A model generated the notes under the pieces. That model had not been told where the DNA came from. It saw only the letters and a list, made by a program, of their open reading frames with translations, and ran no database searches. DNA of 64,000 nt. Origin: Giardia intestinalis (Eukaryota). Positions 60,481-62,227 of this stretch are shown here, piece by piece (position 1 is the stretch's first letter; every line of letters begins with the position of its first letter). Both the position numbers and the translations under genes were made by a program. The stretch lies in NCBI GenBank assembly GCA_000002435.2, contig CM018791.1; one strand, given 5' to 3'.

Positions 60481-61356
60481 GGGCGCGCGGCCCACTTGCT
60501 CTGGGGGGGTGCGGGGCAGACAGACAGGCAGAGCGCGGAAAGAGAAGATTGAGGGAGTGCAGGGTGCCCCAAGGGGTGGCCAGGGGGCAGTGCACGCCCA
60601 CCACCGGGTCTGCCTTGCACAGAGAGACGCCCGTGTGCGCAGGGGGGCGGCGCAGGACCGCAGGGGGCCCGGGGGAGGCGGCCCGGGGGATCCAGACAGA
60701 GAGGGCGGCAGGGAGGCCCAGCGCCTCCAGCAGGCCACGCACGACCGGGAGACACGCCCACGTGCGGGGACGGGCGCTGGGGAGGCCCGGTGCAGGAGAC
60801 CGGGGGACCGCGGGGAGAGCGCGGAAGGACCCCCGGACGGCCCAGAGCAGCCGATCCCCCGGGCCAGTAAACACTCCGGTCTCTCCTGCGGCCTCCTGCG
60901 CCCCCGTGCCCCCGCTGCAGCCAGGCGCACGCACAGCACCCGGGGCTGCCCCAGTCGGTCCAGGGCCGGTCGGGGGCCCCTCCTCGGACCGCGCCCTTCC
61001 GGGGGGCCGCCCCCCACGCAGTGCCCTCCCGCTGCCAGCAGTCACATAGGTTAGAGACGGACCGTATACAGCCACGGCTATCGAGATCCCCGCGAGAAGC
61101 CATTTCGGGCGGTCTCCCCGGAGAGGGCCCCGGACAGCCCCAGATGCACAGTCAGCCTCCAATTCGATCGTTTTGCAGTCAAGGGCCTCCCCGGGGCACG
61201 GTGGACGGAGAACGAGGGGCGCGGATCTCCCGACCGGCAGAGGAGCCCGGGACACGTGGTCCGCACAGGAGGGTTTGCCGTGATATGCAGTCCTGCAGGG
61301 TCCGCCCGGGCTCCCCGGCGCTCCCCGCGGACCGGCCCCCCGGCCCCCCGGACGCC

Positions 61357-61548
61357 CCCAAGGGATTTCAAAAAAATGTGGTGCAGGGGGACTCCAGGGG
61401 GTGTGTGGGGGGCGGCTTCTGTCACGCACTATATAGGACAAGGTGCTTTATCTCGCGAGGGCCGGTTTTTTGGAGGGGGGCAGAGGGCCCCAAGGGAATC
61501 CAAAAAAGTGTGGTGCAGGCGGACCCGGGCCGGGCTGTGGGGGGCGGC
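61357..61548. repeat. Two diverged ~60-bp repeat units about 130 bp apart inside the GC-rich spacer
   Basis: The units are ccaagggatttcaaaaaaatgtggtgcagggggactccagggggtgtgtggggggcggc and ccaagggaatccaaaaaagtgtggtgcaggcggacccgggccgggctgtggggggcggc. Each carries an A6-7 tract in an otherwise ~80% GC context. Confidence 0.45.
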
Positions 61549-62227
61549 AGAGTAATTTACTGAAATACATGCGCACAGGGCGGGGACTGTTGGAAGAGAT
61601 GCTGCCTCCCATCAGAGGGGTGAGGGCCCGCCCGGGGCGCCCCAGCCCCCGTGCCCGCGTGGTCTCGCGGCGGGGGCGCGGCCAGGGGGGCCTTCTCCCG
61701 GCGTCAGGGCATGCCAGGGGGCGCGGAGGGGCGCAGGTGGGCGGCCAGGGGGGCCGGGGGCCGAGCGCTGTGTGTGAGTTGGCGGGAGCGGGCGCTGTGG
61801 GTTAGAGCAGGTGCACATAGATCGCATACGGTCGCCCCGTGTGCGCCCCCCGCTCCGCACGCACGGGTCCAATTCCTTTATTTAAAGTGGCGCGTATCGG
61901 GCGGGCGGGGGGATTTTCGGAAAATTCGGGGGTCCGGCGGGCCACCCAGCTCAGCCGGCAGAGGAGCGGGAGGCTGGGGGGAACGGGGCATTGCTAGTCA
62001 CCGTCCCTCTGTGGCGTCTGCATGCTTGCCGGCGGGGCGCGCACATCCGGGGGGGCCGGCCCGGGTTCCGCGCTGGGGGCGCCAAAATTTAGATTTTGCT
62101 CGCGCTCCCGGCGTCCGGCCCGGCTCTGGGACGAAGGCTGGCAACGAGGCGACCACACAAGGAAGACACCAGAGGGGCGAAGAAAAGGAACGGACAAGGG
62201 GGAGGAGAGAAGACTATGCTGGCAGAG

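Follow-up and report, generated by a model that had tools for sequence, protein, structure and literature searches.

What separates the ribosomal RNA genes from the telomere at a Giardia chromosome end, and whether that DNA belongs to the ribosomal unit, to a mobile element or to neither, is the question raised by the end of contig CM018791.1 of Giardia intestinalis (assembly GCA_000002435.2). The window, meaning the whole stretch of 64,000 nucleotides that was analyzed, closes with a (TAGGG)n telomere array. An initial annotation had described positions 60481-62227, between the large subunit (LSU) rRNA gene and this array, as a single 1.75-kb spacer and had offered two options. It could be an intergenic spacer of the ribosomal DNA (rDNA) that runs into the telomere, or it could be the 3' untranslated region (3'UTR) of a retrotransposon of the GilM/GilT kind, A-tract repeats included. 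Comparison with complete rDNA units shows that the segment is not one entity. Its first part, 60481-61548, is rDNA spacer, colinear with those units and carrying their conserved repeats, and the first option holds to this point. The last 679 bp, 61549-62227, match no unit and are foreign to the rDNA; they are referred to below as the orphan block. From the inside outward, the end of this Giardia-type chromosome consists of a gene unit, partial rDNA, the 0.68-kb non-rDNA block and (TAGGG)n. The rDNA is a relic of one unit, and it is broken inside the second of two promoter-like repeats.

The reference rDNA was found by way of a spurious open reading frame (ORF) of 426 amino acids (aa) in the spacer, which has 15 related ORFs, all of them on contigs no longer than about 5.2-5.9 kb. 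Several such contigs were retrieved, and Rfam identified them as rDNA units with both a small subunit (SSU) and an LSU gene. The comparison set comprised seven rDNA loci of three spacer types, with L003 and L016/L017 representing the two types other than that of the window. Two apparent spacer variants in this set were discarded. The contig of L017 is incomplete, and its apparent spacer is an artefact of circularising it, while the extra length of the L018 spacer is a scaffold gap of Ns. By blastn, positions 59261-61548 of the window are colinear over 2.3 kb with the complete 5.6-kb units L001 and L004, and L015 and L018 align to the window in the same way (blastn, MAFFT). Against L001 and L004, the LSU is 99.9% identical, the variable spacer 86-89% and the repeat block 95-96%. 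Only 60349-61548 corresponds to canonical spacer, with 86-96% identity by sub-segment. An alignment of 60481-62227 to the rDNA spacer does not run from end to end, because 61549-62227 is unmatched.

The chromosome end retains these 2.3 kb of one rDNA unit without a complete rRNA gene. The sole RNA gene that Rfam detects in the window is the 3' part of the eukaryotic LSU (RF02543, 59297-60348, 810 bits), which matches model positions 1891-3399 of 3401. Homology to the complete units by blastn begins at 59261, about 1.47 kb into the gene, so the plus-strand LSU gene is cut on its 5' side and is represented by its 3' 1.09 kb (59261-60348). No SSU gene follows, as the initial annotation had stated. 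Rfam finds none, either at the gathering threshold over the whole window or in E-value mode over 60300-62300, and SSU motifs are absent from the window except for one unrelated match with three mismatches at 29994.

Beyond the LSU model lies a conserved block on the plus strand (60349-60487), which is 98-99% identical to L003, L016 and L017 as far as 60485-60489. This tail extends 137-141 bp past the end of the Rfam LSU model, and beyond it the spacer cannot be aligned between types. It may be an LSU tail that the Rfam model does not cover, or else a short 3' external transcribed spacer (ETS) or terminator. The LSU 3' end had been placed near 60480. The Rfam model ends earlier, at 60348, but since the high identity across spacer types continues to 60485-60489, a segment starting at 60481 does mark the end of the LSU tail or 3' ETS. 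The variable intergenic spacer that follows (60488-61340, plus strand) is about 0.85 kb long. It is colinear with L001, L004, L015 and L018 at about 86-91% identity, and it cannot be aligned to spacers of the L003 and L016 types. The GC content of 60481-62227 is 70.7%, lower than the earlier figure of about 75%. The many overlapping ORFs reported on both strands are present, and they are what GC-rich non-coding DNA produces.

The two diverged A-tract repeats reported earlier also exist, at 61351-61416 and 61483-61548. Each measures 66 nt, and the pair shares 80% identity at a spacing of 132 bp. In an alignment of the reference units (alignment A2), each forms the front half of a tandem unit of about 132 bp. 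Specifically, the unit is made up of an A-tract box (CCCCAAGG.ATT.CAAAAAA..GTGGTGCAG), a G-rich stretch and a box of the form ..GTCAC/CAGCACTATA(T)AGG, and in each unit the A-tract box precedes the CACTATA(T)AGG box. Promoter-like unit 1 (61357-61488, plus strand; direct repeat D3) is complete. It has the A-tract box CCCCAAGGGATTTCAAAAAAATGTGGTGCAGG, then CACGCACTATATAGGAC and then a run of six T residues, with GCTTTATCTC standing before this T6 run in the alignment and a box sequence of CACTATATAGG. Promoter-like unit 2 (61489-61548, plus strand) is truncated. It retains the A-tract box and lacks the ...CTCCGTCCAGCACTATAGGGGGG box, and no 5' ETS or SSU follows. In the reference units the last unit is followed by about 105 nt and then by the SSU 5' end, and the box at that distance reads CACTATAGGGG.

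The unit boxes are nearly invariant, with long invariant runs, in three spacer types that cannot otherwise be aligned, and the unit of about 132 bp is the only conserved part of the spacer across these types. The locus thus has a duplicated block directly upstream of the rRNA transcription unit that is conserved while the spacer around it diverges. Because of this conservation and this position, the units most likely represent a duplicated RNA polymerase I (Pol I) promoter, comprising one or more spacer promoters and a gene promoter whose 5' ETS would be very short. Such an arrangement resembles the spacer promoters of animals and plants in the tandem duplication just upstream of the rRNA transcription unit, in the T-run after the upstream copy and in the conservation of the block while the rest of the spacer diverges. 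It differs in that the Giardia units are very short (132 bp), that the 5' ETS they imply amounts to only about 100 nt and that the case for Giardia is built from conservation and position. The number of units is not constant among the loci, and L016 (1727-2074, minus strand of the locus) has three instead of two. The SSU 5' end of L016 also reads GGAATCCGACG...GGACACAAGCC, compared with GGAGCGCGACG...GGACGAAGCC in L001, L003, L004 and L018. L016 presumably comes from a different assemblage.

Homology to the rDNA stops at 61548, after GTGGGGGGCGGC, inside unit 2. Where the reference units continue with CTCCGTCCAGCACTATAGGGGGG, the window instead reads AGAGTAATTTACTGAAATAC. In complete units of all three spacer types, GTGGGGGGCGGC leads into the conserved CTCCGTCCAGCACTATAGGGG box, the 5' ETS and the SSU (alignment A2), and in L001 about 120 bp separate the equivalent of 61548 from the SSU 5' end downstream. 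In the window, spacer continuity through the gene promoter box and the 5' ETS into the SSU is interrupted. Since the rDNA ends inside unit 2, this chromosome end has lost the gene-promoter box along with the 5' ETS and the SSU. A collapsed tandem rDNA array was considered as a cause and rejected, because a collapse would preserve the continuity from spacer to SSU and this continuity is not seen.

The orphan block (61549-62227, 679 bp) has no blastn, Rfam or protein match. Its GC content is 69% with a GC skew of +0.19, so that it is G-rich on the G strand of the telomere, and the AT island noted by the initial annotation is present within it at about 61869-61930. A blastn comparison with the seven rDNA loci and the rest of the window gave no match, even with 7-nt seeds. 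A diverged spacer in either orientation was also considered and rejected, the local alignment scores being 27.5 and 26 against a mean of about 19-20 and a maximum of 31.5 for shuffled sequences. No Rfam family was found at E values up to 1 in 60300-62300, and exact look-up of k-mers from the block (one 23-mer in JGI metagenomes, one 24-mer in GTDB genomes) returned no match.

Both borders of the orphan block carry the same plus-strand 9-mer, GGCAGAGTA, in an exact pattern search. The left copy (61546-61554) takes its GGC from the spacer and its AGAGTA from the block, and the right copy (62221-62229) overlaps the first TA of the telomere array. The two copies are 675 bp apart, and only one further copy occurs in the 64 kb. 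For random pairs of 24-nt windows from the GC-rich region, a shared word of at least 9 nt has P=0.008. Additionally, the centromere-side border bears the sequence AGTAAAT on the minus strand (61555-61561), which directly abuts the left 9-mer. The motif AGTRAAY is the polyadenylation signal of Giardia, and a scan for it returned only four sites in 3 kb on both strands, of which this is one. Read on the minus strand, the block ends in ...TTTCAGTAAAT, followed by TACTCTGCC and then by spacer; one boundary of the block reads ...CAGTAAAT. The window holds a single 675-bp block and no multi-copy head-to-tail array. The shared 9-mer is compatible with a unit boundary, although it is not itself an array. 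A longer word, CCGGCAGAGGAGC, occurs both in the canonical spacer (61236-61250) and in the orphan block (61957-61971).

The telomere array (62228-63856, plus strand) begins abruptly, as had been reported, directly after ...ctggcagag. TRF describes it as a period of 5 with 324.6 copies from 62227 and 94% matches. Perfect TAGGG units number 302 and make up 92.7% of the array bases, and the variants are mostly changes in the length of the G-run. With about 1.6 kb, about 325 units and its G strand running 5' to 3' toward the end, the array is that of a Giardia telomere. It is followed by a noisy tract (63857-64000) that resembles the C strand, with a local score of 54 to (CCCTA)n versus 3.5 to (TAGGG)n and a composition of A49 C61 G7 T27. 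These last 144 bases most likely arose as a long-read artefact, through fold-back or chimerism, and the true chromosome end therefore lies at or before 63856.

The best explanation of this chromosome end, with a probability of roughly 0.5, is a one-unit rDNA relic that was broken in unit 2, received a foreign block by insertion or retro-copying at the healed end and was capped by a telomerase array. What remains of the rDNA (59261-61548) is the non-functional relic of a single unit, beginning in the middle of the LSU beside the telomere gene unit, and 61548 is a point of chromosome break or erosion. The comparisons establish this much, as well as the foreign nature of the block, while its origin and mode of arrival are proposed. 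The orphan block would have been added by insertion or by retro-copying at the healed end, in a way that left the same 9 nt on both sides, and telomerase would have extended the end from ...GGCAGAG-TA. If the block was inserted, the 9-mers would be a 9-bp target-site duplication at a prior junction of the form ...GGCGGCAGAG(TAGGG)n, and the predicted empty site would read ...GTGGGGGGCGGCAGAGTAGGGTAGGG. If it was copied, an RNA of unit length plus 9 nt would have been copied from its 3' end, with priming at the broken end by GGC/GCC microhomology. Both versions imply that the sense strand of the orphan block is the minus strand and that its 3' end, with AGTAAAT, points toward the centromere, and copying would have proceeded toward the chromosome end. 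A retro-element origin of the block itself is a tentative proposal, the odds for it falling somewhat below even.

Several observations weigh against this account. A 194-aa ORF of the block and a concatenated five-frame translation retrieved no relative from 5.8 billion protein clusters, and a full HMMER search of 1.84 billion representatives likewise returned no orphan-block relative, whereas the neighboring spacer ORF had 15. If the block were the UTR of a multi-copy retroposon common to sequenced isolates, such searches would probably have detected it. How much this silence says depends on gene callers having called spurious ORFs in homologous DNA. For a nearby housekeeping gene, the FtsJ-like methyltransferase gene (52668-53918), 15 Logan contigs encode an identical protein, and their DNA is 98.8-100% identical. 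Close relatives of this strain are therefore in the collection, which makes the silence on the orphan block moderately informative, though no more than that. The 3' region of the block on the minus strand shows no unusual RNA structure (z=+1.15), and a structured 3'UTR like that of R2 elements was rejected on the same value. Enrichment in G-quadruplex (G4) motifs was likewise rejected, there being one motif per strand, and this differs from GilM and GilT, which are reported to be G4-enriched. Moreover, neither border carries a poly(A) or poly(T) run, the inner one included. The reverse transcriptase (RT) domains of GilM and GilT (PMC10088271 supplement) gave a best E of 0.19 against the window by tblastn. 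The sequence GGCAGAG occurs six times in 60349-62229, and the border repeat is therefore only moderately significant; this enrichment of the motif in the region weakens the argument from the 9-mers. The promoter function of the repeats is read from conservation and position. Finally, indels in the telomere and the artefact tail show that the long reads behind the terminus were imperfectly polished.

The readings offered at the outset fare worse when applied to the whole segment. That 60481-62227 is plain rDNA spacer running into the telomere is very improbable. Although 60349-61548 is canonical spacer and spacers vary strongly enough between Giardia lineages that an unsampled longer variant is conceivable, complete units of three types all place the CTCCGTCCAGCACTATAGGGG box, the 5' ETS and the SSU after GTGGGGGGCGGC, and neither strand of the orphan block aligns significantly to the spacer or to any unit. 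Even harder to credit is a GilM/GilT long 3'UTR covering the whole 1.75 kb with the A-tract repeats. These elements are telomeric in Giardia, but 60481-61548 lies between LSU and SSU in complete units and no Gil RT is present in the window. The A-tract repeats belong to the rDNA spacer, and for this reason such a 3'UTR cannot hold for the whole segment. A remnant of this kind could apply at most to 61549-62227, where the evidence for it, the 9-bp direct repeat at the borders and the minus-strand AGTAAAT, is indirect. Searches of the JGI metagenome and GTDB genome collections found no Gil RT. The primers of Genie-1 (PMC1950533) are absent from the window, an absence that is uninformative because they span part of the element and probably derive from another lineage.

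Two further explanations concern the orphan block alone. It could be genomic or low-copy subtelomeric DNA that was captured by end joining or break-induced replication and then capped by telomerase without any mobile element, a reading that is rather unlikely but deserves serious attention. It would fit the lack of database relatives, which is expected of unique or rapidly evolving non-coding DNA, as well as the frequent rearrangement reported for Giardia chromosome ends (PMC10999387), and the 3-nt GGC overlap at the left junction suits microhomology joining. On the other hand, captured DNA gives no reason for the two borders to share a 9-mer (P about 0.008) or for a polyadenylation signal to lie exactly at the inner border, and a GC content of about 70% is atypical for Giardia genomic DNA outside the rDNA, the rest of the window ranging from 44 to 65%. 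An assembly artefact, either a chimeric long-read join at 61548 or a poorly called block, is improbable. The imperfect polishing of the terminus leaves some room for a chimera at 61548, in that the telomere has 5% indels and gives way in the last 144 bases to a noisy copy of itself in inverted orientation. In addition, the source assembly is absent from the searched collections. Nevertheless, 60901-61548 aligns to the reference units without a gap, and the local base quality is hence good; the block is unlike any rDNA and hence is not noisy SSU or ETS, and a random chimera would not yield matching 9-mers at the borders.

A more specific and speculative version of the preferred history can also be considered, for which the chances are slim. 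The 675-bp block might be a complete copy of a new short non-coding terminal retro-element or subtelomeric unit that acts as a dedicated adaptor for healing breaks. The RNA of such a unit would carry UACUCUGCC redundantly at its two termini, and its 3' end would lie 9 nt past AGUAAAU. A broken end in ...GGCGGC-3' could prime on the last three bases of this RNA, a reverse transcriptase supplied in trans would copy it toward the chromosome end, and the copied 5' redundancy (...GGCAGAGTA) would give telomerase a seed ending in TA. The intact spacer promoter 0.8 kb upstream, which would point at the telomere, could then drive telomere-repeat-containing RNA.

Under the preferred history of insertion or retro-copying at a healed end, the closest known elements are GilM and GilT (Genie 1; AF433875, AF433876). 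The orphan block resembles them in its place between rDNA and telomere. Its predicted orientation, with the 3' end toward the centromere, would also match theirs, reverse transcription of GilM and GilT being oriented toward the chromosome end (PMC10999387). It differs in having no RT ORF, no tandem array and no public protein relatives, and in its size, 0.68 kb compared with 5,474 bp for one GilM copy. According to Burke et al., as cited in PMC1950533, insertion of Genie 1 is site-specific and targets a chromosomal DNA repeat, a picture with which a unit of 675 bp and a fixed 9-mer at its borders would agree. In the 2002 work of Burke and colleagues, the chromosomal repeat targeted by Genie 1 reportedly measured 771 bp.

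Healing by terminal retroelements, as with HeT-A/TART of Drosophila, MoTeR of Magnaporthe and Athena of rotifers, offers a second comparison. In these systems, as here, a non-telomeric block stands between unique DNA and terminal repeats, and the predicted sense strand of the orphan block would likewise put reverse transcription toward the end. In contrast, the window has one short block without coding capacity, array or known second copy, and telomerase repeats clearly form its actual end.

The genes proximal to the rDNA place this end among the known Giardia chromosome ends. A variant-specific surface protein (VSP) gene, encoding a cysteine-rich surface protein (54888-56405, minus strand; Pfam PF03302 VSP, E=1.7e-77), comes first and is followed by a 252-aa protein kinase ORF (56868-57626, plus strand; Pfam Pkinase, E=9.3e-36) and an ankyrin-repeat gene (57952-59205, plus strand; Pfam Ank_2, E=2e-107). 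The order of VSP, Pkinase and ankyrin directly proximal to the rDNA, which starts at 59261, is that of the telomere gene unit, which precedes the rRNA genes and the telomere in Giardia (PMC10999387). The kinase ORF matches profile positions 6-196 of 263 and is overlapped by a 219-aa ORF on the opposite strand (56832-57626); it may be a truncated or pseudogenised copy. The ankyrin gene contains a 93-bp tandem repeat of 1.8 copies with 80% match (58714-58882, TRF), which represents recently duplicated ankyrin repeats, and an exact look-up of its protein matched no record. An AGTAAAC motif from the same AGTRAAY scan lies at 59210, 4 nt past the ankyrin stop codon, and only 55 bp (59206-59261) separate this stop codon from the start of the rDNA in the middle of the LSU. 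The word CAGAGTAA occurs at 59207-59214 and again at the junction of spacer and orphan block (61548-61555).

Farther inside, the region of the FtsJ-like gene (52344-54307; L005-L014) differs by 0-1.2% at the DNA level across many sequencing runs, and DRR745022, 100% identical over 1662 bp of it, may come from the same strain. The contigs that carry it are all shorter than 2 kb, and several end alike at 52409 and 54113. The largest gene of the window is a 5550-aa ORF (10798-27450).

Other Giardia ends where rDNA meets the telomere (Upcroft et al.; Adam, Nash & Wellems 1991; PMC10999387) share the VSP, kinase and ankyrin genes, rDNA that is cut in the middle of a unit and (TAGGG)n. The present end differs from them in lacking a complete rRNA gene, with only 2.3 kb of one unit left, and in having its break in a promoter-like repeat with 0.68 kb of non-rDNA before the telomere. 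A truncated 18S abutting the telomere has been described in a review (PMC10999387). The combination of gene unit, truncated rDNA and (TAGGG)n is already known for Giardia, and because this layout has been described, the finding is mostly ordinary. In the 1991 work of Adam and colleagues, one cloned telomere is said to have joined its repeats to the intergenic spacer.

Overall, the comparison with complete units separates what could not be separated from the window alone. The A-tract repeats are ordinary conserved features of the spacer and not part of a retrotransposon UTR, and only the last 0.68 kb is foreign. The 132-bp duplicated unit is a concrete candidate for the Pol I promoter of Giardia. 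This candidate is not known to have been characterised, although no literature search was directed at it. If it is true that the orphan block and its border 9-mers recur at other chromosome ends, they would document how Giardia repairs a broken chromosome end before telomerase takes over.

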